From: Schmidtea polychroa
Lineage: Eukaryota
DNA length: 64,000 nt
NCBI GenBank assembly: GCA_044892525.1
Contig: CM097885.1
Location: forward strand, 868,001 to 932,000
Reading direction: 5' to 3'
Shown here: one piece after another, positions 1-60,207 of the stretch
How positions within the stretch are numbered: the stretch's first letter is position 1
Layout of the letters: each line of letters opens with the position of its first letter
Made by a program: the position numbers and the translations under genes
Notes under the pieces: model-generated
Seen by the model: only the letters and a program-made list of their open reading frames with translations
Databases searched by the model: none
What the model was told of the DNA's origin: nothing

Positions 1-3000
1 TCGAGGAAGAATGAGTCTGTATCCCCGGCTATGATATTTATTTGGCAATCGAACTGTGCTCGATATTTTGACAGTTCAATATATTGTAGTTCATACATTC
101 TAAGTTTAGATAAGTCTAGCACTGTTTGACCAATGTAGCTAGGCCTATCTAAACAAACTACATCTTTATTCAGCAAAAGGGCAATCAAATCATCAGCAAT
201 TTTAATTGAACGTCTAAATGTTGGCTTTGAAGTGTATTTAACCAATTTTTCGGCATTGTTGCACAATCTCAGATTTATTCTTTTCTTCAGATTCTCCACT
301 GTCTTGCCGTAAACACTATTATTTAAAAGTTTATAAAAATCTCTATCTAAACTATTTTGTGATTCAGCTCGAAGTTGGGTATTTGTGTTGATATAATCCT
401 TCAATATCGGCTTTTGTGTAAATTTTATTGCCCGATGTATATTGGTGACTTCCACTCCAAGGGCCATATATAATTTCAAAAGTCTCCAATGAATAACATA
501 ATTAGTTTTCGCATGATGGGTTAATAATAATTTTGGTATATTTGAATCTGGTGGACACATTTTCTCTGCTGCGACTGGGAAATCATCTAATAGGTCGTGG
601 ATATTTGACGGTATGACTAAATCAACTTCCAATGTGTATCCATAAGTTAAATTTTCTAGTTTGGAACTAATACAGTCAACTAAAATGGATAATAATTCCA
701 CTTCATTATATATCCACTCAAAATCGCTACATGGCAAGTATTGGCTTAACGCCCACCCATACAGGTTGTTTATATCGATATAAAGCAACTCTGTTTCATC
801 ATCTGTTACTGCGAAGTGTTTATTTACAAATGTGAGACCACCACGGATCCCACCCTCGAAGAAATTATACATCTCCATGTCCATCAGTAATTCCACTGGT
901 TCTTCTAAGGTCATGAGCGCAGATGCCCAAGACATTCCAGGGATTCCAAAAAAATTGAGTGGCTCGAGTCCATTATGTGCTTTTGATCTTGCTCGAAATT
1001 GTTGGAAGAAATCGGCAAGTAAAAACACATCAAGTTTTAAATAAATTTGTAAATAATCCATTAGAGTTTCGCAACTTGTTTCTTGCCATATTTGTTGCGC
1101 TATTATATACTCTTCATTTGTAACGCCTTCCCAAATAGCGGGCAATTCATATGTTGTTTCTAATATTTCCTCACTTGTGGCAAAATCATAAGGAAAAATT
1201 CCTTTGTTGTTTATGATGGTTCCAGTATTGAATACTGAACGGGTCAAAGGCAATTCGTTCAATGTTTTTACTGCATTATGTAATGAAGTATTGACAAACT
1301 GATATGAGTCAATAAATCTTATTGTAAATTTACCCAGCCATGCTATCAATGTTAAAAATTTCTCTGTGCTTGTTGGTATGCAGCTGAGACTCCAATGATG
1401 AAATTGATTGAGCCCATATTTCAAAATGTGATGTAGATCATACCCTTTCAGATTATGAAATACGATGGGTAATGTTTCTCTGATTTTCCTTTGTTGATTG
1501 CATACATTGCATGAGGCTCCGAGATATTTGCCAGTGAAATGATCATGGTCTTTCACTTTCTCTGGCATTGGCTTTTTGCACAAGTAACAATTGACAACTG
1601 TGTGGAATTGCAGCTTTTCCTGATTTGTCAAAAATTTCATTTGACAATGCCCACTTGTCTTATAATAAACCTTCACTATATTGTTGACAATATTTTCTAC
1701 ATCCATCAGAAATCTGTATACACAATCTGGTCCAATAAAATGACTATATTTCGTTGACCCAGTAAAATTATTTACCAGTAACAGCCCCGCTGCTATAGGT
1801 AAATGTTTTTGGTGTTGTCTTTCATCAAGAGGTAAAACAGCTTCGAAGTCAGCATATATAACAAAAGGCGGAGTTACCATTTTTGACCAGTCATTAAATT
1901 TTAAATCTGAGTTTTCTGGCAACGTGTATAATGTTGTGCCCAATTGGTTTTTCTTGCATAAAGCTACATGCCTGTCAAAAGCATCTTCTCTTCTAAAACC
2001 ATTTAAACATGTCTCGCACCATCTGCATTGAATACGGACTGGGCAACTATGAGTTTTTCTACAATTCATTAATCGCTGTAAATCTGGAACTGCAGTATAG
2101 TGGTATTGGCCATTCGATTCTAACAATAGTAAATACATCGGTGTAACCCCAGTTACTTTAGTCCGATGTATTATATCAATATGTGGATGTTTCATTATAA
2201 TATCCACATTATCGATATCAATCATATTTTTAGGATTGTAACTGAGGACATTGATAGCAATTCCTTCGTTATGCTTTTCGAATTTTGAAATGTCCTTCAA
2301 TTTCATTGGCATATCTAATTCATTATATACCAATTCGGATAAGAACTGTGTATAATTTTCAACATTTGTATTATCAGTAATAATGATATCTTTTTTCAAA
2401 TTGGCTAGCACACTGTATATGAAACACATATCATCTCCGTTGATCACATTTATTAATGCATTTTTATTTATTAAGGCTTTCGGAGTTGGAATATAATTTC
2501 TTCCGGATAATCTGGATATTTCGGAAATCTTAGTTATTTTGAAATTTATTTCAATTATTCTTATCAGACGCCATCCGCTTTCAAGTTCCGATCTGATATG
2601 AATTTTCTCGTGCAGCTTTTCAATACCATCTGCAATAAACTTTTCAAAATTGTTCTCAGTTACCATCACCGCTTTGTTAGAAAATCTTGATGATTGGAAT
2701 TCTCCATCCTTTTCGAAATCACATTCTATCCCGAATTGAACTTTCACAGTTTTCATCTCCTTGATTGTAGATAATAGTTTCTCAGAGAAATTTTCGGGTA
2801 GATTTATCTCATTCATGTTTTTGAACGACATTTTAATTGTTTTATGACAATTTTTCAAGTCAGATTCAATCTCGACTTCTTCAGTAGGTTCCCATTCATT
2901 AACAATCTGGAAATCATCCCATATATTGTCCTCTTCTACTATTTGTTCCGTTTCCACAGGTTCTTCCATCGGTTCTTCCACTGGTTCTTCCACTTGTTCT

Positions 3001-5785
3001 TCCACTGGTTCTTCCACTTGTTCTTCCACTGGTTCTTCCATCGGTTCTTCCACTGGTTCTTCCACTTGTTCTTCCACTGGTTCTTCCACTTGTTCTTCCA
3101 CTGGTTCTTCCATCGGTTCTTCCACTGGTTCTTCCACTGATTCTTCAATATCTTCTATCAAATTAGTTGATCCACAACCAATTTGATAATTTAAAAAATT
3201 CCTTGATTCACCTATAACGATAACATCATCATCATCAGATTCATCTATAATGATGATGTTATAATTAAGTTTTTGTTTTTTAGTAGGTACGTCTATTATA
3301 CCGTTATTAAATAATTTTTTAAAAAATTCTTTCTTATCAGATTTAAAATATGTAAGATGATCTTTGTGATCATTATAAAATATTTCATATGGCTTAGTGA
3401 AAAGAGCTTCGCAAAATGGGCATAAATAATATTTTTTATTATAATAATTTCTTAAATAGTATTTTTCCATTGCTTCATGGCATTGTTTCCCATCATGTTC
3501 TTTTGCGGTGCAACATTGTTTGTATAAATTGCCTTAAATAATTACAATTGCTTTATTATGTTTCTTTTTAAACATATTTAACAATAAACATCTCTCAAAA
3601 GTTTATATTTTTATGGGCGGAAAGGTTGATTTTGATCTTGGTTTATATAGCGAAATGCAATATAAAAAGGAATTATTTAATTTTATAATGTATTTATTTT
3701 ATTATTTTATGTTTTATGTTTTATTTATTTTTAACCATTAAATGGTTTAATTATATGGTTTAATTATATGGTTTATTTATAATATTGAATTTCATTTATA
3801 TTATCGGTAATTCATTTATCTCTATTGATTATCATTTATCTTAATTATTATTATTCCAAAATTATTAATATATTAAAATTTATAATTAAGTTAATTTGTC
3901 CAGGGTATATTCAATTATTTATTCAAATTCAAAATAAGATAAAATCAATTATAATCATTCATAAAATAAATCATTAAGTGGATGTCCTAGATGATTTGAT
4001 TTTATTGTATTTGTGTTAGTCTTTTTATTTGCCATACGTACATACATGCATCAATTTTTAATTTTTTCGAATTTTCAATTTTTTTTTTATAAATTTTAAC
4101 TTTTTATAGATTTACACTTTTAAATTTCATTGTGCATCTAAATTTATTTTTCACCTCTATACACCATAAAAATGGACAAGGGCAGCATTTAGCTCACTAT
4201 GTAAACTTTATTTAATGAGTTACAATATTATTGAATGCCCTTAGTTATTTTAAAATTGTTCAATTTTTTTTTTATCACAATTCATATTTTTGAAATGAAG
4301 TTTCATTTATACATTCATTATTTTTTATAATAAAATTCATGTTGAACGTCTTAATATAGTTAAAATATATATATATTGTCTAATAAATTTCATTTAAAAT
4401 TTGAACTTTGTACTAATTTATTATATATGGCCCTTGGAGTGGAAGTCTCAATAATTCTCAATAATTTTAAGAAATTTATTTAAATCTAAATCTAAATCTA
4501 AATATCTAAATATTTACCAATAAACATCTGATTAAATATCATTTTTTTTTACTATTTTAAATTTTCTTAAACAAAGAACTATAGAAATATGACAATTATT
4601 TAACAATCCATATACTTTTAATTTCACTTACATGAAATACTAGAAGTTTCGTGATGCAATCAAATTTTAAATTAATCTCATCTTAGTTGATTAATGTAAA
4701 AATAATATTGCAAATAAAAATTCGATTTTAAAATGAAGTTTTATTTATATTTTCATCATTTTTTTTTATAATAAAATTAAAGTTGATCGTCGTAATATTG
4801 TTAAAATAAACTAACAATAACTATATTAATATTGTCTAAAAAAATAATTTCAGTAAATATATTAACTTTGTACTTTTTTTATTTTCAGTTTATATATCAA
4901 TATATTTGTATTTATGTGATACGTATATTATTTATGCTTCAAAGGACTTGGGCAAAAATTTGAGTTGCATAAATGAACATTTTTATCTTCAAATCTGAAA
5001 TTTTTATAATACAATTAAAATTGTTAATATTATATATTGAAAATCTGAAACATCAATTGTTTTTGTAGTCATACTTTTCTTTAACAGGTAAAGTATATAA
5101 TTTCTTCACCTATTTTTCATGAAAATTGTTTTAGAAAATTATTCTCAGAGATATCAAAAGCAGAAGTTTATATTTTTTTAATTTGACATCAGTGACAGAA
5201 TTCTGTTTATTTCTGGTATAATAAATATCTTTTCTATAATTAGGTTACTTATAGTAAAAAATAATATTCCTTATCAATAATTAAAATATTGTCTAAAAAA
5301 TAATTTCAGTAAATATATTAACTTTGTACTAATTTTAATTAATAATTAATATATTACTAATTTTCATTAATTTTAAGAAATTTATTTAAATGAATTCATC
5401 TAAATATTAACATCTGATTAAATATCATTTTTTTACTAATTTAAATTTTCTTAAACAAAGAAATATATAACTAGAAATCTAAGTTAAATTTTGTAATTTA
5501 CTTACATTTTATCTTCTTTGCGAAATATTCAATAGTTCCAGCAGCACAAGCAACTGAATCATCAACTGAATCCACATTAAAATTTCCTGGAAAAGACAAT
5601 TAAAAATAAGCAATGAATTATTATTATTTAACTTTTTCGTCCATATTCGTTTGCAGGTATCGAAGTAACAAAATGTTCTTCAATTATGACACAATCGCTA
5701 TCTAGAAAATAAATATATATATATATATTAAAATGAATTAAAAAATAATGAAAATACCATTTTCGTAATCGATGTCTGTGATCAT
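1..5785 (-). CDS. Protein-primed family B DNA polymerase (Polinton/Maverick-type), subfamily A; apparently intact, spliced, runs off the left edge. Predicted exons 5785-5758, 5701-5633, 5586-5506, 3532-<1
   Basis: Manual translation is open from 3532 to 1 (absent from the ORF track, presumably because the stop lies outside the window). Motifs: VIYADFEA (ExoI), CYLC..DHDHFTGKYLGASCNVCN (EndoVII-like), FHNLKGYD (ExoII), YLKLDV (ExoIII), YIDINNLYG (pol A), KLLNNSVYGK (pol B), AGDTDSFF (pol C). The upstream exons are bounded by GT..AG and stay in frame; they are predicted only. Confidence 0.9.
2945..3145 (-). repeat. 12-bp coding tandem repeat (EEPV/EEQV/EEPM) in the pPolB-A N-terminal region
   Basis: GGTTCTTCCACT-type units in frame with pPolB; the overlapping small ORFs are its alternative frames. 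Confidence 0.9.
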
Positions 5786-5978
5786 TATTTCTAAAGTTAT
5801 TTTGTAATAATGAAAATGTTTATAATGAAAAGCATACTTTATTCTCCAGCCAATTAAAATTAAGATAGAAAATATATTACGTTGTGGTATTTTAAAATTA
5901 TTTTGTGAAAAGTGAAATAAATATGTGCTTAAATTAACTATGATCATAATTACATATTTTTATTTAAAATAAATAGAT

Positions 5979-5981
<3 letters not shown>

Positions 5982-6033
<52 letters not shown>
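5982..6033. repeat. (TA)n microsatellite
   Basis: Direct inspection. Confidence 0.95.
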
Positions 6034-6036
<3 letters not shown>

Positions 6037-6529
6037 TAAATGTCTGATAATGACCATTTTATTTTACCATTTATTTTACCCTTATTTTGATTCGATTCAA
6101 TTATGTATTATATATAGTAGACTTTCGAATGATATAAAACTTGTGTGTGAGTAAAACCGTCCATTATTTATTGCTCCTTATCAATGTTTTCATATACAGA
6201 CACACATAGATTATCTGACCAAAATAAAACAAATATATATATATAGTTTTCATAAATTTTAATCAAATTACATGTATTTTCTTAAAAAATTTTGATTTTA
6301 CCCTTATTTATTGCCCTTTACACACATTCACTTTAGATCTCGCTTAGAAATATTTTTCTATCCTTAAGGTGTGTAATACAAAGACATATGCAATACAAGT
6401 GCATGAGTAACAAAGACATTTGCAATGCAAATGCACGAGTAACAAAGACATTTGCAAACGTAGTATTAAAACGTGTTTTGACTTTGAAAATTTTCTATAA
6501 AGTAATTCGTTAAATGGACTTAGAAAATT

Positions 6530-7053
6530 TTTAATTTTTGACCTTGATTTGACCTTAAAATTAGGGGTAGGGGGTAGGGGGTTGACCTTAAAATTTTCTA
6601 TGACCTTAAAATTTTCTATGACCTTAAAAATAGGGGTAGGGGGTAGGGGGGTTGACCTTAAAATTTTCTATGACCTTAAAAATAGGGGTAGGGGGTAGGG
6701 GGGTTGACCTTAAAATTTTCTATGACCTTAAAAATAGGGGTAGGGGGTAGGGGGGTTGACCTTAAAATTTTCTATGACCTTAATAATAGGGGTAGGGGGT
6801 AGGGGGGTTGACCTTAAAATTTTCTATGACCTTAAAATTTGGGAAAATTAGACTTTGGCCTCAGAAGTTGACCTTAAAATAGTCTAAAATCGACTTTGAC
6901 CTCAGAATTTGACCTTAAAGTGGCTTAAATTGACCTTAAACTGTCCTGAAAATGACATTGACCTTAAAATTTGACCTTAAGTTGACCTCAAAATTTTCTA
7001 TGACCTTAAGTTGACCTTAACGATGAGTCATCGTGCGCTCACTTCTACCTACT
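6530..7053 (-). repeat. Left terminal region of element A: TGACCTTAA array, ~52-bp G-rich tandem units, putative terminus AGTAGGTAGAAGTGAG at 7053
   Basis: Five TAGGGGTAGGGGGTAGGGGG units (~6562-6810) and many TGACCTTAA copies. It ends in ...CTCACTTCTACCTACT, resembling the CTCACTATATACTACT termini elsewhere, and abuts a truncated MULE end. Confidence 0.65.
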
Positions 7054-8778
7054 TAAACATCGAAAGCATTTTTATTATTTAAAAAAAAAAATTGTATGTA
7101 ATTGATGTAACAATTTTAACATTTGTTGACTTTTAAAACTATTAGGCCGCTTGAAGTTCTTAATTATGGGCTAAACCTCTTAAATAATCTAAAATGTTTC
7201 GAGTTCCATATGACTCTACTATAGACTTGATTCTTCTGGCAGTTTCGATATAAATTCTTTTTGATGGTGGTGGAATAATTCCTGACGTTAATTGTTCCAA
7301 TTTCAATCGAGTCAGGCCTTCTTCTTTCTTTAAAATTTTAAGAAAACGCCAGAAATTTGGGTTACTTGATGCCATCAATGAACTAAAAGATCGATGCCAT
7401 CCTTCAATCGAGTTATTTGTTTTAGGAAGATCATCGATTGATGCTTCGTAACAATTCCAAAGCGATATCGGAACTCTTGGTGATCTTCTTCCTGTTGCAG
7501 ATCTTGTTGGTCTTCCAATCCACTGATCCTCGATATAATCGATAAGTGGACAAAGCAATTGTTCGTTTTCTCTGAAGAAATCAGAGTCTAAAAGTACATT
7601 GAAACACTCAATGACATCTTCTTCTGGCACAAAAGCTAAAGCTGCAAGTTGTCGCAAATATAAAGAAAAATCAGGATCCTGTATATCCTTATATTTGTCG
7701 CTAATTGGACTGTTTCTTTGTATTTCTCTCCATATACATTGAGAAAAATGGAAGAAACAACCACGAATTCTTGTATCGGGGAAGCAATCTTTGATTGAAT
7801 TAATAATTGCTTGTTCAAAATCCGATAACACAGATACTGGTGATGGAGCAGGCTTTATTTGCTTTAATTGGCGAAAAACTTTAGTATAAGTTTCTTGTCT
7901 TTTGTTAGGCAAAAGAGCATAAACCAAAGGTATCACTGTTTTATCGATAATACAATGTACCGTAAACATCTGAAAAAATAAACTTGGAGCAGTTTTAAAT
8001 GTTCCATCAACGTATAAATGCGGAGATGATACTAATGTATCAATTAATCGACTTGTGCTGAACATCACAATTCTATCTGCGCCATCATTTGAATCGTAGA
8101 TTACAAAATCATCTCCAATTGCAGTTTTTCTTAAGTTTTCGGGTATAAATAAATCCGAAAGTGATGTCGGCGAAGGCAATATCCCTGATGCTTGATTTCT
8201 TTGTCTTCTGATAGTTCTTTTGATCGAATCTATCTTCGGCAACTTGCTACAAACAGCTTGAGACGATGTTGACGTTGCCGCTGCAATAATTTGAAGCGGT
8301 GTTTCGGTGGAAGTTTTTGAACTTTCTTTTATTTCAGAATAAAGCTCTTTAGCTTTAATAACGGCAACTTTTGGAACATGATTATGTTCTCCTATTTCTT
8401 TTTCCACTTGATTATCAACAGTGTGGCATCTTCCTTTGCACTTAAATGTCAAATATTCCACACATTTCCAATAAGTTTTTTCGTTATGTTGCCTATCTTT
8501 TTGATAAAGAAAACTATTATATAAAAGTTGATTAACACCTTTTTGACTTTTAATAAATTTAATCTCCATTTTTATAATTGGAATCAATATTTAGCTAATT
8601 TAATAATTTAACTATGAAGAAATGAAAGGAAACGGAAACAATTTAAAGGGACTTTTTATTAATTTTTCGATATTTTGTTTTCGATATTTTTGTTTTCGAA
8701 ATTTTGTCTATTCAATATTTTATTTTCGGTGTTTTTGTTTTAGTTTTTTTAATTTTCGGTATTTTGTCCGGGATTCCC
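7054..8778 (-). mobile_element. Mutator-like (MULE) DNA transposon; 5' end intact, 3' TIR truncated
   Basis: The 5' end GGGAATCCCGGACAAAATACCGAAAA is followed by internal AAAATATCGAAAA-type repeats (8660-8778). Only AAACATCGAAA remains at ~7055. Confidence 0.8.
7160..8569 (-). CDS. MULE transposase with N-terminal FLYWCH zinc finger
   Basis: FLYQK..YWKC..CKGRC..HNH, YVDGTFK, SDFEQA, GCFFHFSQC, TNNSIEGWH. First ATG at 8569 (the ORF track starts at 8587). Confidence 0.92.
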   Translation of the reverse strand: MEIKFIKSQKGVNQLLYNSFLYQKDRQHNEKTYWKCVEYLTFKCKGRCHTVDNQVEKEIGEHNHVPKVAVIKAKELYSEIKESSKTSTETPLQIIAAATSTSSQAVCSKLPKIDSIKRTIRRQRNQASGILPSPTSLSDLFIPENLRKTAIGDDFVIYDSNDGADRIVMFSTSRLIDTLVSSPHLYVDGTFKTAPSLFFQMFTVHCIIDKTVIPLVYALLPNKRQETYTKVFRQLKQIKPAPSPVSVLSDFEQAIINSIKDCFPDTRIRGCFFHFSQCIWREIQRNSPISDKYKDIQDPDFSLYLRQLAALAFVPEEDVIECFNVLLDSDFFRENEQLLCPLIDYIEDQWIGRPTRSATGRRSPRVPISLWNCYEASIDDLPKTNNSIEGWHRSFSSLMASSNPNFWRFLKILKKEEGLTRLKLEQLTSGIIPPPSKRIYIETARRIKSIVESYGTRNILDYLRGLAHN

Positions 8779-13614: not shown

Positions 13615-14060
13615 AAAAGATTAAATTTTTAAATTAAAGTAAATATTGGTTCTAAATTTTAAATTAAAGTTATTAAGGTCCAAATTTTAAAATTAAGTAA
13701 TCAATGGTAAAAAATTAAAGTTAAATAAGTAAATTAAAGTAAGATTTTTAAATTTATTAACAATTGAAATTTTTTAATGAAAGTTTTTATGAAATAATTT
13801 TTTATGAATAATTTTTAATAGAAATTTTAATGAAATATTTTTCAATGGTAATTTTTAATGGAAATGTTTATGAAATAATAATAAAAAAAATAATAATAAT
13901 ATATCAACCAAATACTATACAACACATAAAAAATTAACTAAACACATAAAAATAACTAGACACATAACAAAACATATAAACATTAACTAGACACATAAAA
14001 AACATAAAAATTTACCAAACAAATAACAAATGTATATATATAAACTTTTATTTAATAAAA
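13615..14060 (-). repeat. Right-end arm of pPolB subfamily B (3' flank plus ~29-bp AT-rich array)
   Basis: Reverse complement of 37470-37890. Confidence 0.8.
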
Positions 14061-17056
14061 TTAGTCCTCATCAGACAAAATAACGTCATCGATATCGATA
14101 TCATCTTCTCCAAAATCTTCTCCAACATCTTCAATAAGTTCTTCCTCATCTTCTCCAACATTTTCATCAAATTCATCTCCAACAATTTCTCCAACATTTT
14201 CTCCAATATTTAATTCACTTAATCTTACATGCCCATTTTTTCAGCAGCTTCAGGGAAATCTTCCAACTTCTCATTTAGCTCAGAAGAAATTACAAGATCA
14301 ACTTCAAGAGTGTATCCATAAGACAAAGAATCAAGATTTAAATTCCTACATTCATCCATTTTTAAATCAAATCCATCAAGAACCCAACTAAATTCACCAC
14401 AAGGTAATGATTGACTTAAAGCCCAACCATAAAGATTATTAATATCTATATAAAGTAACTCGGTGTTCTCATCGGTTTTTACGTAATGCTAATTCAAAAA
14501 AGTAATACCGCCTCTTATTCCACCCTCATAAAAGCTAAACATTTCGTTTTCAGTTATGAGCTCAATTGGTTCATTTAAAGACATTAATGCAGAAGACCAA
14601 GACATACCTGGAATTCCGAAATAATTCAATGGTTCCAATCTATTGTGAACAATAGATTTCATCCGAAACTGATGAAAGAAATCAGCCAAAAGAAAACAAT
14701 CAAGTTTTAAGTAGATCATCATATAATCTAATAAAGTTAGGCAATTAGTTTCTACCCAAATCTCCTGAGCTTTTTCATACTAAAGCTCAGTAACACCCTC
14801 CCAGATTGGTGGTAATTCATAAGTAGTTTGGAGAATATCTAAAGATGTAGCGAAATTATAAGGGAAGATTCCTTTTTCAGAAACTATAGTGCCAGAAAAA
14901 GCAGAATTAGTAAAAGGCAAAGAATTCAAAGTTTTGACTGCTTTAGCTAAAGAATCATTAACAAATTGATAAGAATCAATGAATTGATAAGAATCAATTC
15001 TTTTGCCTAAATGCGCAATCAAAGAAATAAATTTTTCAGTCGTTATTGGGATGCAACCTAAAGTCCAATTTTTAAATTTATTTAATCCGTATTTAAGTAT
15101 ATGATGCATATCGTATCCCTTCAAGTTGTGAAATACGATAGGCAAAATTTTATTTATTTTCTTATTTTTGTTACATGTGCTACAAGCTGCACCCAAATAT
15201 TTCCCCGTAAAATGATCGTGATCTCTAACAGGATCAACGATAGATTTCATACAAAGATAACAAACAGATGCACTAACAAATTGACGTTGTTCAATTTTCG
15301 TTAATTTAATCATAGGTTTCCTACCCATTTTATAATAAAAAGGAAGAACCTTATTTAATGCTATATCCTCTATAGCACTTAAAAAACTCTCGACGCAATC
15401 TAAACCTATGAACTGTTGATAAGATTTAGATCCGTCAAAGTTATTTACAAGTAAAAGACCAGCAGATATTGGCATGTGTCGTTGGAAATGAACATTATCA
15501 GAAGGTAAAATAGCCTCAAAATCGGCATAAACTACAAAAGGAGGAGTTACTGTTTTCGACCAGTCAGTAAACTGCAATAATTTATTTTGAGGGAAAGTGT
15601 AAAGAGTTGTTCCTAATTGATTACGTTTACATAATATTTCATGTTTTTCCAGTGCGTGTTTATACCTAAACCCATTCAAACACCGATGGCACCATAATGA
15701 ACGTATGCGTGTAGGACAACTAGTGTTGATACCACAATTCAGTAACCTATTTAAATTACTTATAGCAACGTAATGGAAATTGTTTCCTTTATTTAAAAGT
15801 AGTAAATTAATTACAGTTCCATTTAAAACTTTGGAACGATGTATAATATCTAAATGTGGATGTTTTAATACATAATTATCAGTTAATTGTTTGCTATTAT
15901 CATATGAAAAAACATTAATTATTAAACCCGAATTTTTAGATTCAAATTTCCTAATGTCTTTTAATTTCATAGGTAATTCTAACGGGTCGTATACTAAGTC
16001 AGATAAATTATAACTCGATGTCCTATTTCTAGCATAACTACTAACTTCATCATATTTTAAAATAGCTAAAATGCTATATAAAAAACATGAATCATCAGTG
16101 TTTTTTATATTAATTAAACAATATTTATTTTTTAGATAAGTAGGTGTTTCAATGAAACTCCTACCACTTAATCTACTTAACCTACTTATTTTTGTTATGG
16201 TGAAATGTATTTCAGTAATATTTTATATATTCCAACTGCTTCCTAACTCAGTAATATTAGTAATTTTCTCATTTAATTCTTTAATGCCTTCATCAAAAAA
16301 TGATGCAGTTAAAGGCTTTGCATAATTTGAGATATTATAAACCTTTATTTCCCCGTCTTTTTCAAATTCGATTGTTATTCCAAATTGAATTTTGACGGAG
16401 CCTTATTCGTTAATAATATCTCGTAATTTTATTATTAGTTGTTCAGGAAATATTACTTCTTTTATATTTAAGTCGCTGTATTTAAGCTTAATATTTGATG
16501 GGTACCTCTTAAATCTCTTTGTACTGTCGATACATTTCCACTTATTTGTATTATATTTAATCCATCCCAAGAATCAAAGGAAGTGAATAATCCATCATTG
16601 GATTCAACAACCAATCCATCATTGGATTCAACAAAAGGCAATCCGACCTGGGATTCAACAAAAGACAATCCGTCCTGGGATTCAACAACCAATCCATCAT
16701 TGGATTCAACAAAAGACAATCCGACCTGGAATTCAACAAAAGACAATCCAGCCTGGGATTCAACCTCTAATCCGACCTGGGATTCAAAAGAAGTATCTAA
16801 TTTAATTTTTTTATTTGTATTATTTTTTTCTATAGTTGAGGGTCTTTAAAAACACTATCTTTTTTAAAATTAAATCTATCTAAATGATTTTTATGTTTAT
16901 TATAAAAAACGCTATATGTTACAGGGTCACTAGTCTTACATACGGGACATATAAAATAAGTTTTATTATAATATTTTTTCGTGTAATAATTCTCCATTAT
17001 GGAATGGCAATTATTATCATGTTCTTTCGATGAACAATAATTTGGATAAAGTATAC
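14061..17056 (-). pseudogene. pPolB subfamily B, exon 4, with stops/frameshifts and deletion of polymerase motifs B and C
   Basis: ORFs 14780-15970 and 14489-14722; FPEAAEK is joined directly to the acidic tail; splice acceptor at 17057-17058. Confidence 0.9.
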
Positions 17057-17209
17057 CTATAAAATAAAAATTTAATAAAAATATATAATTTAAATGAAAT
17101 ATTTTAATAAATGTTTACGCAAAAATTTGCAAATTATTATTATTTTACAAATTTTATTTACTAAAAAATAAAAATTTACTAAATTAAAAATATTAACATT
17201 TACTTTTTT

Positions 17210-20580: not shown

Positions 20581-21899
20581 TTAGTCCTCATCAGACAAAA
20601 TAACGTCATCGATATCGATATCATCTTCTCCAAAATCTTCTCCAACATCTTCAATAAATTCTTCCTCATCTTCTCCAACATTTTCATCAAATTCATCTCC
20701 AACAATTTCTCCAATATTTTCTCCAACAATTTCTCCAACATTTTCGCCAATATTTAATTCACTTAATCTTACATGCCTATATGCAAGACTAGTATTTTTC
20801 CCCACCCAAACCCTTTTGTCATCTTTGTTAGTTAGTGCTATTTTATTATTTTTAATTGTAAAAATTTGATGATTTTTGTTTGTTAATTTTGTTTGAGGAA
20901 TCGAAAAAATTTGATTAGTTTTATAACAATCCAGGTATGACTGATGTTTTATGTCACTACCTTTCAATGTTACACCTTTAGCCTTTTTTGTTTCCTCATC
21001 ACCCAACAAGCTTTAACACTTGGGTCTAAGAAAAACCCATTCCCTATATTTAAGACCTTTATTCTCGTCTTTGAACTTTCCAATGACAGAATCAAGGTTC
21101 TTACTATATAAGGAATGACAACTATTGTAATCGAAGTATGTAATAAATTATCTCGAATCATTGCAGGTAAAAGAACCTCAAGTTTACAGTTAATGACTTC
21201 GAGGAAAAAAGAGTCTGTATCACCTGCAACGATATTAATTTTATTAACAAATTGATAAAAATCAATGAATCTTAAGCTTATTTTGCCTAAATGCGCAATC
21301 AAAGAAATAAATTTTTCAGTCGTGATTGGGATGCAACCAAAAGTCCAATTTTTAAATTTGTTTAAACCATATTTAAAAATATGGTGCATATCGTATCTCT
21401 TCAAGTTGTGAAATACGATAGGCAAAATTTTATTTATTTTCCTATTTATGTTGCATGTGCTACAAGCTGCACCCAAGTATTTCCCAGTAAAATGATTGTG
21501 ATCTCTAACAGGATCGACGATACATTTCAAACAAAGGTAACAAACAGATGCACTAACAAATTGACGTTGTTCAATTTTTGTTAATTTCATCATAGGTTTG
21601 CTTCCCATTTTATAATAAAAAGGAAGAACCTTATTTAATGCTATATCCTCTATAGCACTTAAAAAACTCTCGACGCAATCTAAACCTATGAACTGTTGAT
21701 AAGATTTAGATCCATCAAAGTTATTTACAAGTAAACGACCAGAAGATATTGGCATGTGTCGTTTGAAATGAACATTATCGGAAGGTAAAATAGCCTCAAA
21801 ATCGGCATCAACTACAAAAGGAGGAGTTACTGTTTTCGACCAGTCAGTAAACTGTAATAATTTATTTTGAGAGAAGGTGTAAAGAGTTGTTCCTAACTG
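20581..21899 (-). pseudogene. pPolB-B internally deleted derivative (Exo/EndoVII region fused to motif C and tail)
   Basis: YQFVN|KINIVAGDTDS junction; frameshifted; duplicate of 61997-63298. Confidence 0.9.
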
Positions 21900-22600
21900 A
21901 TTTTTTATGTGTTTAGTTAATGTTTATATGTTTTGTTATGTGTCTAGTTATTTTTATGTGTTTAGTTAATTTTTATGTGTTGTATAGTATTTGGTTGAAA
22001 TAATAATATTATTATTAATCTATAAAAAAAAATTTCATTAAAAAAATTTACTTAAAAAATTAATCCACTAAAATTTTCGTTGAAAATTATCTTAAAAAAT
22101 TTTTATTAAAGATTTTCATTAAAAAATTTCAATTCTTAATTACTGACTATTATTCCAACTTTTTGTTAATAAATTTAAAAATCTTACTTTAATTTACTTA
22201 TTACTTTAATTAAAAAATTTGAAACTTAATTTACTTATTTCAGCCCATTGATTACCAAATATATCTATTAATTTACTTTAATTCAAAAATCTTAGCCCAT
22301 AATTTACTATATTTCAATTTTTAGACCCTTAATTTACTGTAATTCAATTTTTGAACCATCATTTACTTTAATTTTAAATTTAAGAACCATAATTTACTTT
22401 AGTTTAAAAATTTGAACCTTAATTAACTAATAAAAGTTAAATTATCATTTTCAATTAATATTTTACAAACATAAAATTACAATATTTGAAATTCTAAATA
22501 TCTCTATTAACATGTTTGCAATTAATTTTAAAAATACAAAAATTTTACAAAATTTTCAAATTGAATATTAAATATTTTTTTAATTTGCATTTGATAATGT
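21900..22600 (+). repeat. Right-end arm of subfamily B, inverted relative to the adjacent pPolB fragment
   Basis: Inverted copy of 20050-20350; direct duplicate of 63300-64000. Confidence 0.85.
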
Positions 22601-29404: not shown

Positions 29405-29860
29405 TACTTTTATTTTATGATAATTACTAATTAAAATTTTATTCAAATTGAAATATTATTGTTACAATTTACACTCTTGTTAGAATATATTAAATGTAAA
29501 TGTAAAATAATAACAATAAAAAAAAATAATAATAATAAATAAAAAAATTAAATAAAAAAATTTAAATTAAAAAAAATAATAATAATTAGTTAAATAATTA
29601 ATTAAAAATTAATTAAAAATTAAATAAAAAAAATCATTTAAATAACGTAAGTAATTAAAATAAAATATTAATAATTAATTAATTAATTAAATGTAATAAA
29701 TTGAAAATTAACTAAAGTAATTAATTAAAACAAAAAACATAATAAAATAATTACTTAATAAATTTAAAAAAAAATTAAATAAAATGATTCGATTGACCTA
29801 TATTTGATCTGGACATTGGGATGACTTGAAAGTGTTCTGGAGTCCTCACTATATACTACA
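29405..29860 (+). repeat. Polinton-like TIR (right orientation) fused to the middle of pPolB
   Basis: Ends GGAGTCCTCACTATATACTAC; paralog of 30860-31300. Confidence 0.8.
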
Positions 29861-30680
29861 ACAGTTTATACGGTAAAACTGTGGAAAACTTGAAGAAACG
29901 TATAACTTTGAGATTATGCAACAAAAGCAAAAGATTGATAACTTATTGTAGTCATCCTATGATTCGTCGTAGCATCAAGATTGCGGATGATCTCATTGCT
30001 GTTATACTCAATAAGGAAATTGTGTGTTTAGATAGACCAATGTATATTGGACAAATCGTACTTGATTTATCCAAACTTCGCATGTACCAATTTCAATATA
30101 AAGAGCTACTGAGTTATAGAGAAGAATTCAATTGTCAAATTAATATCGTAGCCGGTGACACAGATTCCTTCTTTTTAAAGTGTAAAAATGTTGATTTACG
30201 CTTACAACTGTATCCAAAAACGATTGAAGATGGGATCTTAGATACTTCAAATTATGCAGTGACCGATCCGTTGTTCTCTGATGAAATTTGTTCTGTAATC
30301 GGGAAAGTTAAGGATGAGAATAAAGGAAATCAATATAAAGAATGGGTGTTTCTTCGACCCAAGTGCTACTCACTCCAAGGCGATAAAAACACTCTAAAAG
30401 CCAAAGGAATAAGACTTACAAACTCTAATCTTACACATGAAGCCTATAAAAAGTGTATACTGATGGTGGAACAGTGAGCATCCCACAAAAAAGAATAGGA
30501 AGTGTCAATCATCAGTTGTATACTTTCATGACAGAAAAACGAGCTCTCCAATGTTTGGACGATAAAAGGTATTGGTACAATTGTAATGAAAGCTATGCCT
30601 ACGGTCACTATAAGATTCGTCAAATGCATATTGCAACTGCTATGTCTAGAAATGAATGCAAATCGAAACAAGGACTTTAA
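29861..30680 (+). pseudogene. pPolB subfamily C, C-terminal part (motif B to stop), one frameshift
   Basis: NSLYGKTVEN, AGDTDSFF, LRPKCY, KAKG, DDKR. Confidence 0.9.
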
Positions 30681-30859
30681 CAATTAAATTTATGTGAATA
30701 ATAAAATATATATTGTGAATTATTTGACTTCGTTAATTAAAATATGTTTTATCATTTAATAATTCATTTGTCCAATTAATTTAGATAATTAGTTTTAAGT
30801 AAGAATTATTATTTATCATGAAAAACTTTGCTTTGTTTTGAAAAATTAATGCCCATTTT

Positions 30860-31300
30860 ATTTTAAATTAACACAGCTTTATTTTATGATTATTACTAAT
30901 TAAAATTTTATTCAAATTGAAATATTATTGTTACAATTTACACTCTTGTTAGAATATATTAAATGTAAATGTAAAATAATAACAATAAAAAAAAATAATA
31001 ATAATAATAAATAAATAAAAATTAAATTAAAAAAAAATTAATTAAATAACGTAAGTAATTAAAATAAAATATTAATAAATAATTAATTAATTAAATGTAA
31101 TAAATTGAAAATTAACTAAAGTAATTAATTAAAACAAAAAACATAATAAAATAATTAATTAATAAATTTAAAAAAAAATTAAATAGAAAAAATTAAATAA
31201 ATTTAAAAAAAAATAAATAGAAATGATTCTATTGACCTATATTTGATCTGGACATTGGGATGACCTTGAAAGTGTCCTGGAGTCCTCACTATATACTACT
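30860..31300 (+). repeat. Polinton-like right TIR ending ...ACTATATACTACT
   Basis: The reverse complement starts AGTAGT, the typical Polinton terminal microsatellite; recurs at 51779 and 55956. Confidence 0.8.
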
Positions 31301-33416
31301 AATTATAATCATAATTTTCTTTAATTTAACCCTTTATTTACTTAATTTAGCCCTTGTTTACCGAATATAGAAGTTTAAAATATAGACCATTGATTACTTT
31401 AATTTAAAAATGTATCCCTTAATATACATAATTTCCATCTAAAATTATTTCAAAAAAATTTTTTTTCTAAAATTGTCATTGAAAAATTTTCATAAAAGTT
31501 TTCATTTAAAATTTTCATTGAAAAATATTTCATAAAAATTTTTTTTAAAAATTATCTTAAAAATTATTCCATAAAAATTTCCATCTAAAATTACTTAAAA
31601 AATTATTTCATAAAAATTTTCATTAAAAAATTTCAATTCTCAAACACCTTCTATTATTTTGTTAATAATTTTAAAATACCGCAATGTAATATATTAATTT
31701 TTTCCTAACCTTCCTTGATTTTGATTGGTTAGAATTTGTTCCTATAAACAATAATAATCTATAAACAATAATAATCTATAAACAATAATCAATCATTAGT
31801 CACATTTAACAAATAATTAACCTTTAAAAATGAGTTCTTTAATAGAAAACGTTATGAATGTTCGAGAAAAAATTCAGGAATTTGGTAAATTTTAATTTAT
31901 TTATTAATTAATTTATTAATTAATTTAGATAATATTAATGAAGACAATTTAAAATCGAAGATTAAAGGAAATTTGAAAAGAAAAAGTAAACATAATTTTT
32001 AATTTATTAATTTAATTAATTAATAATTTAGGTAATAAGAATAAAGAGAAAAAATATGTCAATGTTTCAATAAATCGAAATGAAAATTTACAATGTAAGT
32101 ATTGATTACTTTTTATAATTTAAAGGAAATTTAATATAATTTTTTATTTAAGTAAATGTTAATATTTTTAATTTAGTAAATTTTTATTTTTTAGTAAATA
32201 AAATTTGTAAAATAATAATAATTTGCAAATTTTTGCTTAAACATTTATTAAAATCTTTCATTTAAATTATATATTTTTAATAAATTTTTATTTTATAGGT
32301 ATACTTTATCCAAATTATTGTTCATCGAAAAAACATAATAATAATTGCCATTCTATAATGGAGAATTATTACACGAAAAAATATTATAATAAAACTTATT
32401 TTATATGTCCCGTATGTAAGACTAGTGACCCTGTAACATGTTGCGTTTTTTATAATAAACATAAAAATCATTTAGATAGGTTTAATTTTAAAAAAGATAG
32501 TGTTTTTAAAAGACCCTCAACTATAGAAAAAAATATAACAAATAAAAATATTAAATTAGATACTTCTTTTGAATCCCAGGTCGGATTAGAGGTTGAATCC
32601 CAGGCTGGCTTGTCTTTTGTTGAATTCCAGGTCGGATTGTCTTTTGTTGAATCCAATGATGGATTATTCACTTCCTTTGATTCTTGGGATGGATTAAATA
32701 TAATACAAATAGGTGGAAATGTATCGACAGTACAAAGAGATTTAAGAGGTACCCATCAAATATTAAGTTTAAATACTAGCGACTTAAATATAAAAGAAAT
32801 AATATTTCCTGAACAACTAATAATAAAATTACGAGATATTATTAACGAATTAGGATCCGTCAAAATTCAATTCGGAATAACAATCGAATTTGAAAAAGAC
32901 GGGTAAATAAAGGTTAATAATATCTCCAATTACGCAAAACCTTTACCTGCATCATTTTTTGATCAAGGCATTAAGGAACTAAATGAGAAAATAACTAATA
33001 TTACAAAGTTAGGAAGCAATTGGATTATAAAAAATATAACAGAAATCCACTTCACTATAACAAAAATAAGTAGGTTAAGTAGATTAAGTGGTAGGAGTTT
33101 CATTGAAACACCTACTTATCTAAAAAATAAATATCGTTTAATTAATATAAAAAACACTGATGATTCATGTTTTTTATATAGCATTTTAGCTATTTTAAAA
33201 TATGATGAAGTTAGTAGTTATGCTAGAAATAGGACATCGAGTTATAATTTATCCGACTTAGTATATAACCCGTTAGAATTACTTATGAAATTAAAAGACA
33301 TTAGGAAATTTGAATCTAAAAATTCGGGTTTAATAATTAATGTTTTTTCATATGATACTAGCAAACAATTAACTGATAATTATGTATTAAAACATCCACA
33401 TTTAGATATTATACAT

Positions 33417-35691
33417 CAGGGGTGCCCACTAATTTTTCTAGGAGTGCTACATTCACACCCAAAATGTGTATGCGATCTACTTTTTCAATACTTACATAAT
33501 ATTTACCTACAATGCAATAAATTCATCACAATAGAACAAATATATGTCAAAATATGGAAAATTAAACTATGTAACTATTTATTATAAAAAAATGTAACTT
33601 AGGAAATCAAATTTAATGAAAATTATTGTTATATAGAACTTTTCGATGTTGATGCTCTACATTGGGTTGAATCCACTAGATTTTTGTAGTTTGGGATATA
33701 AGTGCTAAGACAACTTCTTAGGCTGGATTCCAAATGGTCATCTGTTAATGTTGCTCGGTACTTTGACTTAATAGTTTTCATATGTGAAAATGCAGACTCA
33801 CATAAATAAGTTGAACCAAAAGATGATAATAAATTTTCGAAGCATTTTTTCAAGTTTGAATATTTATCCTCTGATAGATATTTCCATACATTTGGTTCGG
33901 AAGATCTTGATTTAATGAAGATATCATTTTGAAGTGTGACTATTTCCATATCAAGTATAGGGATATCCATTTTAAACAAAGTTGAAATTGAATCTGCAAC
34001 AATTTCTGGCTTTATTTTTGGAATAAACGGAAAGGACATAAATGCAGCCACAATTTCAAGTTTCTTGAAGTCTTGAAAACGTCTCTCGAACTCTAAAACC
34101 AAAATTTTGATCTGTTCGGCATATCTCGTAATATTAAAGTTGACATTTTCAGATTCTTTTAATTGTGACAACATATTTGGAAAATAACTTAAATTTTTGT
34201 CTTTTATTTTGATAATAAGTAAATGAAGCTTTTGTATAAATGCAATGATTGAACTTATCATATCGAATATCAATTTATCCTTACGATGTAAGTCGAGATT
34301 TAATTCATTCAGAATTGCAGTAATATCTACTAAAAATGCCAAATCCAAGAGCCAAACATCATCTTCCAATTGCTTGAACTCATCACCTCTTGCGGCAAGG
34401 AACAACTTAATCTCAGAAAGCAAATCTCTAAATCTTTGTAAGAATTTTCCTCTACTTAGCCACTTTACATCTGAATGCATCAGTAATTCAGCAGGACCTT
34501 CGCTATTACTTTCTTCAATTTGTAATTTGAAAAGTCGTCTCTGAAGACTTCTTGCACGAATCGAGTTAGCAATTTTGAATGTTATTTCCATAATATCTCT
34601 CATATTCAGAATTTTAGCACACAAGGCTTGTTGATGAATAATACAGTTGTAGGAAAGAAAATCTGGGAATTCACAATCATTCCTACAATATGCTATAAAT
34701 CCGTTGTGACGCCCTGTCATAGCTGGTGCGCCATCTGTTGTTATTGATACAAGCTTACAAATTTGGAGCTGAATGCTGTTGGCATAAGCTTTAAAATTCT
34801 GAAATATATCCTCACCTCGAGTTGTACTTTTGAGTGGTATAATTGTTAATAATTCTTCCTTCGTAGAAAAATCTTTAAAGACCATTCGAATAAAAATTAT
34901 AAGCAGCGAAATATCAGCCGCATCAGTTGATTCGTCTGCTTGCAATGAAAATGCAGTACAATTTCCTATGTCTAACATTAACTGATATTTTAAATTGGTA
35001 CTTATTTCTTGGACTCTTCGTGTAACTGTATTACGGGACAATTGCATATCAGTAATAGCAGAAATTATATCTGATTTATTTTTAAAATCACAAAATAATG
35101 ATTCTGCCGCTTCTAAAAATGCTTCTTTTACAATTACTCCATCACTAAAAGATTTCTTATTTTTTGCCAGAATGTAGCTTACTCGGAAAGATGCAGCTGT
35201 AGCTGACTTTGATTTGGATGCTAGCGTCGTAAAAAATAACTGTTGAAAAAAAATGCATGTTTTCAGTTCCATGATTTTAGACTTGCGTAGTTCACTGTCA
35301 AGTGGATAATCAACTGCAAAATTCTTATGAATTGTCTTGAAATGCCTTTCCAAATTCCCTCTTTTTGGTAATGAAATAGTAGCTTTACAAATTAAGCAAC
35401 AACATTTACCTTTAATCATTACAAAAAAGTACTCCTTCTCCATTTCTTCGCTATAATGATAAGTCTTGGCTTTTCTATTTAGCATTTTTTATTTAGCATT
35501 TTTTATTTAGCATTTTTAAACAAAATTAATTTAACAATAAAGCTTAAGAAAATTTTTCACTTTGTTACACAAAAATTTAAGCATAAAACAGAAATTTTAT
35601 ATAAAATCTAAATTTATATAAAAAATATTTAAAAAATATTTATGAAGATCTACTAAAAAATCCTTCGCGATCGAACTTATGGGCACCCCTG
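33417..35691 (-). mobile_element. Complete hAT transposon (Buster/SPIN/GTF2IRD2-like), 2275 bp
   Basis: TIRs CAGGGGTGCCCA/TGGGCACCCCTG; 8-bp TSD TTATACAT (33409-33416 and 35692-35699). Confidence 0.97.
33629..35485 (-). CDS. hAT transposase, 618 aa
   Basis: CLIC..HF..H zinc finger, SLQADESTD, ITTDGAPAM, CIIHQQAL, VKWLS, FGSTYLCESAFS. Confidence 0.95.
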   Translation of the reverse strand: MLNRKAKTYHYSEEMEKEYFFVMIKGKCCCLICKATISLPKRGNLERHFKTIHKNFAVDYPLDSELRKSKIMELKTCIFFQQLFFTTLASKSKSATAASFRVSYILAKNKKSFSDGVIVKEAFLEAAESLFCDFKNKSDIISAITDMQLSRNTVTRRVQEISTNLKYQLMLDIGNCTAFSLQADESTDAADISLLIIFIRMVFKDFSTKEELLTIIPLKSTTRGEDIFQNFKAYANSIQLQICKLVSITTDGAPAMTGRHNGFIAYCRNDCEFPDFLSYNCIIHQQALCAKILNMRDIMEITFKIANSIRARSLQRRLFKLQIEESNSEGPAELLMHSDVKWLSRGKFLQRFRDLLSEIKLFLAARGDEFKQLEDDVWLLDLAFLVDITAILNELNLDLHRKDKLIFDMISSIIAFIQKLHLLIIKIKDKNLSYFPNMLSQLKESENVNFNITRYAEQIKILVLEFERRFQDFKKLEIVAAFMSFPFIPKIKPEIVADSISTLFKMDIPILDMEIVTLQNDIFIKSRSSEPNVWKYLSEDKYSNLKKCFENLLSSFGSTYLCESAFSHMKTIKSKYRATLTDDHLESSLRSCLSTYIPNYKNLVDSTQCRASTSKSSI

Positions 35692-37900: not shown

Positions 37901-39284
37901 GCCGATGAGAACACCGAGTTACTTTATATAGATATTAATAATCTTTATGGTTGGGCCTTAAGTCAATCATTACCTTGTTGTGAATTTAGTTGGGTTCTTG
38001 ATGGATTTGATTTAATAATGGATGAATGTAGGAATTTAAATCTTGATTCTTTGTCTTATGGATACACTCTTGAAGTTGATCTTGTAATTCCTTCTGAGCT
38101 TCATGATAAGTTGGATGATTTCCCTGTAGCAGCTGAAAAAATGAAACCTGCTGGGTCTAAGGTTAAAAAAGTATTATTAACTCATCTTCCAAAATCTAAT
38201 TATGTGATTCATTGGAGATTATTAAAATTATATTTGGAACTTGGTGTTAAAGTAACACGTGTAAATAGGGGTGTAAGATTTAAGCAATCTCCAATTTTTA
38301 AAAAATATATAGATACAAATACAGAATTAAGGTCAAAAAGCATAAATAATTTAGATAAAAATTATTATAAATTGTTAAATAACAGTTTATACGGCAAAAC
38401 AGTTAAAAATTTAAAGAGAAGAATGAATCTTCGTCTTTGTACAACTGCCGGTAAATAAGTAACATATTCTTCAAAGCCGACTTTTAAAAAACTATTAAAA
38501 TAGATGATAATTTAATTGCGGCATTAGTGAATTCAGATTCTATATGTTTAGATAGACCAAGTTACATTGGTCAATCTGTACTTGATCTATCTAAACTTAG
38601 AATGTATGTATTACAATATATTATATTGAATATAAGGATCTAGAATCATTTCGCAATGAGTTTAATAATAAAATTAATATCGTTGCAGGTGATACAGATT
38701 CTTTTTTCCTCGAAGTCATTAACTGTAAACTTGAGGTTCTTTTACCTGCAATGATTCGAGATAATTTATTAGATACTTCCAATTACAATAGTTGTCATTC
38801 CTTATATAGTAAGAACTTTGATTCTGTCATTGGAAAGTTCAAAGACGAGAATAAAGGTCTTAAATATAAGGAATGGGTTTTTCTTAGACCTAAATTATAT
38901 AGCTTGTTGGGTGATGAGGAAACAAAAAAGGCTAAAGGTGTAACATTGAAAGGTAGTGACATAAAACATCAGTCATACCTGGATTGTTATAACACTAACC
39001 AGATTTTTTCGGTTCCTCAGACTAAAATAACAAGCAAAAATCATCAAATTTTTACAATTAAAAATACTAAAATAGCACTAACTAACAAAGATGACAAAAG
39101 GGTTTGGGTGGGAAAAAATACTAGTCTTGCATATAGGCATGTAAGATTAAGTGAATTAAATATTAGAGAAAATGTTGGAGAAATTGTTGGAGAAGATGAG
39201 GAAGAATTTATTGAAGATGTTGGAGAAGATTTTGGAGAAGATGATATCGATATCGATGACGTTATTTTGTCTGATGAGGACTAA
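37901..39284 (+). pseudogene. pPolB-B C-terminal half (motifs A, B, C and acidic tail), disrupted
   Basis: YIDINNLYG, KLLNNSLYGK, AGDTDSFF, DDKR; stop at 38456 and frameshifts. Confidence 0.9.
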
Positions 39285-39785: not shown

Positions 39786-40109
39786 GCGTTTTTAATGTAA
39801 ACCACCTTTTCTATTGAAATTCTCATGACCAAGGAGACCCCCTCACTGTAGTCTGAAAAATCCATGCTTTTTTATTGAAGACTACCTTTTTCTATTGAAA
39901 TTCTCAGGACCAAGGAGACCCACCCAAATAATATTTATACTTGGCTTGTTTATTGAAAAAAAAATTTTTTGTATTTAAAATCCCAGAAAAAATACATTGG
40001 AGCGTACGGCAACAATTATGTATTCAAAAAATGTCTACGGCAAAAATTATGCAATCAAAAGTTTGCAACATTTTTACCCCCCCCCTATTTCTCCCGCGGG
40101 CCCCTAACT

Positions 40110-60171: not shown

Positions 60172-60207
60172 CCCAAAAACGCCATCGCTCTGATAGACAA
60201 CTTACCC

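Follow-up and report, generated by a model that had tools for sequence, protein, structure and literature searches.

The window analyzed here is a stretch of 64,000 nucleotides from Schmidtea polychroa (GenBank assembly GCA_044892525.1, contig CM097885.1, positions 868,001 to 932,000 of the forward strand) that holds many pieces of genes for a protein-primed DNA polymerase (pPolB). From these pieces an earlier note, made from the sequence alone, proposed a new class of element that is bounded by terminal inverted repeats (TIRs) and carries the polymerase as its only gene, either as a linear-plasmid-like replicon or as one segment of a virus. The locus thereby raises the question of whether polymerase genes that stand alone between inverted repeats mark a class of their own or derive from a known one. 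The answer favored here, with a probability of about 0.8, is that the flagged locus at window positions 1 to 7053 is the right end of a complete Maverick/Polinton (family A in the following), that the other pieces come from two further Maverick pPolB families, B and C, and that the polymerase-only units of family B are Maverick derivatives formed by copy-back synthesis or TIR extension.

A complete Maverick/Polinton at the left edge of the window

A complete, conventional Maverick/Polinton of 17,454 bp (a polintovirus-like endogenous element) ends in the window, its rightmost ~7 kb being positions 1 to 7053. The polymerase-only unit that had been placed here is refuted, as the same copy continues for 10.4 kb to the left of the window with integrase, ATPase, protease, penton, and capsid genes. 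Leftward extension of the contig, which the earlier note had suggested as a check, revealed in the flagged copy itself what that note had named as speaking against its proposal, namely the same pPolB and TIRs together with integrase and capsid genes. The element and its parts are the following, with negative positions lying left of the window.

Window -10400 to 7053 (G000:C1:857600-875053): whole family-A Maverick/Polinton, delimited by contiguous copy alignment, TIR pairing, and direct reading of the termini and the target-site duplication (TSD)
1..7053, no strand: in-window part, right end of the 17,454-bp element
-10400 to -9574: left TIR, 827 bp
6165..7053, no strand: right TIR, 889 bp, with 19 GACCTTAA iterons at 6551-7013 and the end ...GCTCACTTCTACCTACT
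7054..7059 (right copy) and L032:9594-9599 (left copy): TSD TAAACA, 6 bp, perfect, read directly
3..3470 in the window, minus strand, stop codon at window -367: pPolB-A, residues 1-1156 of the 1300-aa open reading frame (ORF) lying in the window
3534..6164, no strand: AT-rich non-coding region from the pPolB start to the right TIR, ~19% GC, of copy-variable length

The boundaries were read in a comparison set consisting of the window copy and six other family-A copies taken with their flanks. With another copy, the window copy forms an unbroken alignment from -10401 to 4915 (95.6% identity over 15.5 kb). The left TIR pairs with the right TIR, read from 7053 to 6165, at 89.7% identity over 891 columns. 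The termini have the form 5′-AGTAGGTAG...CTACCTACT-3′, which is of the type 5′-AG...CT-3′; a longer reading gives 5′-AGTAGGTAGAAGTGAGC...GCTCACTTCTACCTACT-3′ with TAAACA flanking both ends. In the window the right end reads ...CTTCTACCTACT, the reverse complement of which starts with AGTAGGTAG. The core GACCTTAA occurs 19 times in the TIR, compared with 0.9 occurrences expected per strand for the whole window.

The AGTAG terminus at 7053, which had been noticed before, was confirmed by all six other copies. Exact end-motif matching places their right ends at the equivalent of 7053, and similarity stops at window 7053-7056 in five of the six. Perfect 6-bp TSDs flank every copy in which both ends were read (6/6, the window copy included), and they read TAAACA, CTCCGA, CATTTA, AGTATT, AATTTA, and TATTAT, the last of these within a microsatellite. 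The region 3534-6164 has no ORF of 100 aa or more, and other copies lack window 4915-5285 or vary in it. Judging from what is known of the family, the integrase would insert linear double-stranded DNA and thereby create the 6-bp TSD. The polymerase, with its N-terminal terminal-protein/vOTU region, would replicate the element by protein priming from the TIR ends.

Genes of the family-A element

Every defining Maverick/Polinton feature is present in the family-A element. The pPolB-A frame is open over 3..3533 on the minus strand, with an upstream stop at 3533 and the ATG at 3470, and it runs past the left window edge. The ATG lies 3,583 bp from the terminus at 7053; the previously assigned start at 5785, ~1.3 kb from the terminus, was wrong and falls into the non-coding region 3534-6164. 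The C-terminal 611 aa match PF03175 (DNA_pol_B_2) with 100.1 bits and an E-value of 1.8e-28. Pfam missed this domain in the whole 1300-aa protein and detected it only in a separate scan of the C-terminal half. The translation shows recognizable Exo and Pol motifs. An insert resembling an Endo VII/HNH zinc finger occupies aa 645-681 (E 2e-4, below the cut-off), and an OTU-like Cys/His motif, recognized by eye only, lies nearer the N terminus. Polinton pPolBs are described as having an N-terminal terminal-protein domain and a vOTU protease, often with homing-endonuclease inserts (PMC11161782); the OTU-like motif and the HNH-like insert of pPolB-A agree with the architecture outlined there. An acidic EEPVEEQV tandem repeat is found in the N-terminal region (window ~2930-3150, aa ~130-195), and its repeat number varies between copies, which leads to pPolB ORF lengths of 1300-1339 aa. 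In a public sequencing run guessed to be RNA, contigs cover the pPolB-A frame (1-3300) and almost none lie over 3300-5700; the public runs were compared as contigs, in which starts, ends, and extrachromosomal forms are invisible.

The remaining family-A genes sit in the 10.4 kb directly left of the window. Among them are an A32-like packaging ATPase (Pox_A32, 29.3 bits, cut-off 22.8) and an adenain-like protease (Peptidase_C5, 30.8 bits, cut-off 21.3). The integrase is a single 385-aa ORF that combines an rve match just under its cut-off (32.4 bits, cut-off 32.6) with rve_3 (E 0.001) and a Chromo domain (E 2.8e-4, 21.2 bits, below the Pfam cut-off). The double-jelly-roll major capsid protein has 426 aa, and its AlphaFold2 model (pLDDT 85.1) matches the capsid proteins of iridovirus, PBCV-1, mavirus, and Sputnik in Foldseek with E-values of 7e-17 to 1e-12 and a probability of 1.00. 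Its best viral structural match is a protein of Cotesia sesamiae bracovirus (E 1.6e-27, 24% identity). The penton-like protein of 360 aa was modeled with a pLDDT of 87.8; it matches adomavirus LO5, the virophage/mavirus minor capsid protein, and the pentons of MELD virus and adenovirus with E-values of 1e-10 to 3e-4 and TM-scores of only 0.3-0.5. A PDB sequence search with the capsid protein and pPolB-A returned nothing useful.

The element additionally encodes a TBP-like protein (Pfam TBP, 55.2 bits, one repeat) at L013:3004-3591 on the minus strand, corresponding to window -6996 to -6409. It is kept at 92-94% identity in two other full copies and is only 52% identical in a neighboring related element. 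A small ORF adjoining the left TIR (L013:578-907, plus strand) has a weak match to the Bcl-2 family (E 0.019, 15.9 bits) that is far below the cut-off and serves as a lead only.

Derivatives of family A

The seven family-A copies form a graded series. Three have the full gene set. One has lost the ATPase and integrase through an internal deletion, one is truncated where another element's end cuts it off, and another has an inverted copy of the right arm (7053 to 1606) in place of its left part. The seventh copy, 13.7 kb long, consists of pPolB sequence only: an inverted arm (7053 to 1470), a hairpin junction, and a full right arm. Its junction lies immediately beyond the stop codon, where 88 bp of perfect inverted repeat enclose a 44-nt loop, and is a signature of copy-back synthesis.

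Two neighboring elements were met at these loci. The copy with the TSD AGTATT is inserted inside a related Maverick (locus c134, 240-7642 and 22066-22467, G000:C1 ~134.97-134.99 Mb) whose capsid protein is 95% and whose integrase is 89% identical to those of family A; the DNA examined there stops short of the polymerase side of this element. At another locus (c64b, 36354-39406, G000:C1 ~64.54 Mb), a pPolB with 25-33% identity to that of family A adjoins a family-A copy; by sequence it belongs to a much more distant polymerase-bearing element family.

Polymerase-only units of family B and the termini of family C

Polymerase-only units do exist elsewhere in the genome, as had been proposed, and their boundaries differ from the proposed ones. 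They were traced with a 480-aa family-B query that gave 89 genome matches at 95-100% identity. Sixty of these form 30 pairs, all of them divergent (-,+), with a spacing of 5158-7910 bp (median 6802); the other 29 are unpaired, four of them near the window. Most frames are open over ~1200-1310 aa, commonly 1301 aa. The units are dispersed over at least four large contigs, and no family-B copy was found in ~230 kb of other genomic DNA examined.

Each arm of a family-B unit joins a tail of 0.83 kb to a single pPolB of 1301 aa with 1.8 kb of DNA upstream of it, and two such arms are inverted around an asymmetric spacer of ~770 bp made of 21-bp repeats. In the pair whose 4-kb center was read, the inverted arms are 99.2% identical and the central 4 kb contain no ORF above 103 aa. 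The spacer is present in all 38 central regions that were scored and is always joined to the same arm. The outer boundary is defined by more than 20 dispersed copies, which stop matching the window copy at query position 1514 (window 40114), 0.83 kb past the stop codon. Five units with both outer ends mapped measure 13,026-15,825 bp. No integrase or capsid module lies within the units, as the mapped pieces fill the 13-16 kb and leave no room for another gene. Since this module is not inside them, family-B units are non-autonomous derivatives and not full members of the Maverick group. In 3 of the 38 loci, the second arm is reduced to a 63-bp stub that starts exactly at an inner module, AGTAGTATGATG...ACATATACCTACT. 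From their sequence, these stubs suggest that a single-arm form of ~7.6 kb also exists.

The terminal motifs of family A, of family B (outer and inner), and of family C are alike and consist of a GC-rich stretch followed by ...ACCTACT or ...ACTACCT. A sensitive BLAST comparison of the family-B tail and the inner arm end with each other and with the family-A TIR revealed no long TIR, only AT-rich noise. The outer family-B terminus in the window, the only one there and part of a rearranged copy, reads ...CCCCTAACTACCT at 40113/40114. Its 23-nt pattern has only 30 sites in the genome, 11 of which are within the first 1.3 Mb of the contig, indicating that the dispersed units carry a different end variant.

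In family C, the terminus ...CTCACTATATACTACT at 31300 lies ~0.6 kb beyond the pPolB-C frame. An ACTACT terminus had been noted at this distance from the pPolB-C stop, and at least 15 dispersed copies with 94-98% identity end their match exactly at 31300, in support of it. Family-C matches form (-,+) pairs with spacings of 2.1, 7.3, 11.2, and 32.5 kb. The 3′ end of pPolB is 0.6-0.8 kb from a terminus in both families B and C.

Origin of the polymerase-only units

Snap-back and TIR-extension structures are products of protein-primed linear replicons when replication goes wrong. Copy-back derivatives would form when such a replicon turns back on itself, and family B would arise in this way (by copy-back, i.e., snap-back, or TIR extension) from a Maverick with an outward-facing pPolB beside one end, as is seen in family C. 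The derivatives would keep two identical ends and the polymerase, and they would probably be mobilized in trans by the integrase of autonomous Mavericks. Insertion by an integrase made elsewhere is supported by the many open integrase and capsid frames in the genome: 116 integrase matches in 107 scored candidates (of thousands) and 98 listed capsid-protein matches, almost all of them open. Included is an abundant capsid/integrase family with a capsid protein 97% identical to that of family A and at least 80 open copies. Coordinate lists, with 39-107 candidates scored of thousands, linked no pPolB to this family, and it is absent among 40 scored matches to the family-A protease-pPolB junction.

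Several points weigh against this origin. The parent is hypothetical, as no complete Maverick was encountered that combines the pPolB and the termini of family B, and the tail and the inner arm end of family B have just a ~7-nt end motif in common instead of a long TIR. Transposition of family-B units is suggested solely by the boundaries common to dispersed loci, with no TSD read, and the listed family-B units have no listed integrase or capsid locus closer than 10 kb, in lists that are small samples of thousands of candidates. Either the double-arm or the single-arm form may have arisen first. The family-A series has limits of its own. Its copies were picked by their pPolB match, which makes it partly a matter of ascertainment that all derivatives keep pPolB. 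The TSDs of the derivatives do not prove that the derivatives moved, because rearrangement in situ of a complete insertion would preserve the TSD too.

The numbers of family-B units, with pPolB alone and 1301-aa frames open in both arms, could also be taken to mean that inverted-repeat-bounded pPolB units are a class in their own right, be it as a replicon akin to linear plasmids or as part of a bipartite Maverick-like virus of which they form the polymerase segment. Among the listed loci, the family-B units have no integrase or capsid gene beside them, and the abundant capsid/integrase family in turn stands without a linked pPolB, as a division into segments would have it. However, the flagged copy is a complete Maverick, and family A itself yields a pPolB-only copy-back form, which demonstrates a simple origin for such units. 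The Maverick end motif is present on family-B ends as well, the high identity between copies accounts for open frames without selection, and the missing linkage may reflect sampling. An independent class of this kind is quite unlikely. The new element class put forward in the earlier note, whether a linear-plasmid-like replicon or a virus segment, is not supported; the Maverick end motif on B and C termini, the graded family-A series, and the abundance of intact integrase and capsid genes speak against it, and family A is a further member of the known Maverick kind.

The pairs themselves could have been produced without any mobility, by segmental duplication, gene conversion, or an inverted-duplicate artefact of long-read assembly. 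This would be in line with the fact that no family-B TSD was read and with the window copies of B and C, which have spread by local segmental duplication and whose 97-99% matches run past the terminus into the flank at no fewer than six places in the first 1.3 Mb. It is nevertheless very improbable for the dispersed units, which occur as pairs on at least four large contigs, share the stop at query 1514, and have one orientation in 30 of 30 pairs and the spacer in 38 of 38 central regions; an assembly artefact would not recur with one common asymmetric spacer. It is also very improbable that each pair stems from two independent insertions of a ~7-kb single-gene unit, brought head to head by target preference. 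The inner arm end does have a terminus-like module, and the 63-bp stubs, which start exactly there at 3 of 38 loci, fit the ~7.6-kb single-arm form. Independent insertions, however, would not recreate an identical junction, and they conflict with a spacer that is always on the same arm, with divergence in all 30 pairs, and with the 99.2% identity between the arms of the pair that was read.

A copy-back origin leaves room for a stronger proposal, an unlikely one on present evidence, in which family B is a self-sustaining satellite lineage of Mavericks whose copy-back genomes comprise the polymerase and two identical ends; in its strongest form, the abundant capsid/integrase family would lack a polymerase of its own and form a bipartite helper-satellite system with it. 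Family-B units would then replicate extrachromosomally by protein priming, and the integrase and capsid of other Mavericks would integrate and perhaps package them. If this is true, the recurring snap-back structure records in the genome the linear, protein-primed replication long assumed for Mavericks. A direct demonstration of this mode of replication in Mavericks is not known to us, no search having been aimed at it.

As probable copy-back structures, the palindromic units provide indirect sequence evidence for a linear, self-replicated stage of Mavericks. They are also a natural system for sorting the ends, the polymerase, and the integrase into those required in cis and those able to act in trans. 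A full-text literature search, with subscription journals and Repbase outside its scope, found no description of polymerase-only palindromic Maverick derivatives. The genome-wide picture is notable in itself: one animal-type genome harbors Mavericks by the dozen, nearly identical and with their capsid, integrase, and polymerase genes open, alongside an amplified palindromic family retaining the polymerase alone.

Polymerase pieces and other features of the window

The density of pPolB in the window was described correctly in the earlier note, which counted more than ten pieces and recognized no integrase, ATPase, protease, or capsid gene in the 64 kb. A tblastn search with the 13 proteins of the complete family-A element found 13 separate pPolB pieces and no match to the other 12 proteins, and Pfam found no rve, Pox_A32, or Peptidase_C5 in the 29 window ORFs of at least 100 aa. 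The excess of pPolB arises because the pieces are locally duplicated rather than independent and because the source elements carry only pPolB. The pieces beyond pPolB-A belong to families B and C and are rearranged, locally duplicated fragments and not intact 7-kb units; the family-B pieces are ~56-60% identical to pPolB-A at the protein level. They are listed below with residues on the family-A scale.

13637..17205, minus strand: family-B pPolB fragment, aa ~1-72 and 211-992, 56% aa identity to A, truncated at both ends
20598..22598, minus strand: internally deleted family-B pPolB fragment, aa 528-748 joined to ~1141-1300
29860..31300, plus strand: family-C pPolB 3′ fragment, aa 1072-1274, 67% aa identity, with tail and terminus ...CTCACTATATACTACT at 31300
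31688..40114, plus strand: rearranged family-B arm with ~0.65 kb of upstream DNA, a hAT-interrupted pPolB with an internal duplication, and a tail of 0.83 kb that contains ~30-bp repeats
50733..51779, plus strand: family-C pPolB 3′ remnant, tail, and terminus, local duplicate of 30260-31300
54910-55956: second duplicate of 30260-31300, family C
58855..62000: three family-B pPolB 5′ fragments at 59030-60171 (plus), 61183-60191 (minus), and 61982-61197 (minus)

The fragment at 13637..17205 has Pfam matches to PF03175 and Endonuclease_7. Part of it (13637-15846) is duplicated within the window at 37894-35692 with 97.4% identity, and 20598-22598 is a local duplicate of 61999-64000 (98.95%). These rearrangements also dispose of the ~7-kb pPolB-B unit that had been drawn in the window. 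The sequences at 56795-57300 and 37660-37890 that had been taken for its inverted arms are tandem-repeat arrays with periods of ~13, 30, and 40 bp and not a unit-defining TIR; the core GACCTTAA, known from the family-A TIR, is present in part of the ~30-bp arrays. Between 0.32 and 1.34 Mb of G000:C1, many sites carry the B and C fragments again, flanks included, with 97-99% identity. Large duplicated blocks of Maverick debris are arrayed at this chromosome end, and local segmental duplication near it further inflates the pPolB density of the window.

The window is nuclear DNA of a eukaryote. Its GC content varies from 0.19 to 0.35, its long ORFs translate without difficulty under the standard code, and it contains no tRNA gene and no Rfam match. 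A mitochondrial origin with genetic code 4, prompted by the low GC, was rejected on account of the missing tRNA and Rfam matches and a contig size of 271 Mb. The window ORFs other than pPolB comprise a FLYWCH+MULE transposase, a hAT transposase, and a reverse-transcriptase fragment. The FLYWCH+MULE ORF (476 aa, window 7160-8590, minus strand) looks intact and lies ~100 bp from the right end of the Maverick. The hAT element of 2.27 kb (33419-35691) sits inside a family-B pPolB and has a 619-aa transposase ORF on the minus strand, ends of the form CAGGGGTGCCCA..., and an 8-bp TSD, TTATACAT; the uninterrupted sequence is found at 15870-15811. Runs of minus-strand ORFs at 8749-13628 and 24704-27534 include an RVT_1 fragment and remnants of Ulp1/C48-like proteases and are probably part of another large repeat family.

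Comparison with known systems

Family A closely resembles described Polintons. The Anolis Polinton measures 17,487 bp and has a 6-bp TSD and TIRs of 584 bp (PMC3014272), and family A, which is 17,454 bp long, likewise has long TIRs and a TSD of 6 bp, together with 5′-AG...CT-3′ ends. The gene content is shared with the Polinton/Maverick group, as pPolB, rve integrase, A32-like ATPase, adenain-like protease, double-jelly-roll capsid protein, and penton-like protein are all encoded. Family A differs from this group in the extra TBP-like gene, in the AT-rich non-coding stretch of ~3.6 kb that separates the pPolB start from the TIR, and in an integrase with a chromodomain (below the Pfam cut-off). 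With the Maverick-derived genes of Cotesia bracovirus and with insect adintoviruses, it shares structural proteins, the bracovirus providing the best viral capsid match and adintovirus proteins being among the capsid and penton matches. Unlike these, family A is an integrated, TSD-flanked chromosomal copy of a multi-copy family.

Linear plasmids of mitochondria and the cytoplasm are extrachromosomal and usually encode a pPolB and an RNA polymerase. No RNA polymerase was present among the Pfam matches of the window and left-flank ORFs, the window lacks tRNA and rRNA genes, and the copies described here are chromosomal and, in family A, flanked by TSDs. Foldback/Galileo elements have in common with the family-B units very long inverted arms with internal tandem repeats and a short middle segment. 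Their arms are non-coding, and Galileo is described as moving by a P-type transposase (PMC3573991). The units here differ from them by a pPolB gene in each arm and by Maverick-type ends.

The derivatives of other protein-primed replicons offer a further analogy. A hairpin-forming deletion derivative has reportedly been seen for the kalilo plasmid of Neurospora, which is protein-primed, and defective adenovirus genomes include derivatives of the copy-back type. By analogy, the palindromic units would share with these two inverted arms with one original end, a small asymmetric loop, and retained replication ends; the corresponding parts would be the 88-bp stem and 44-nt loop of the family-A derivative and the ~770-bp loop of family B. 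The kalilo and adenovirus forms are extrachromosomal, whereas the units in this genome are chromosomal, dispersed, and present in at least dozens of copies, with an open polymerase gene in each arm.

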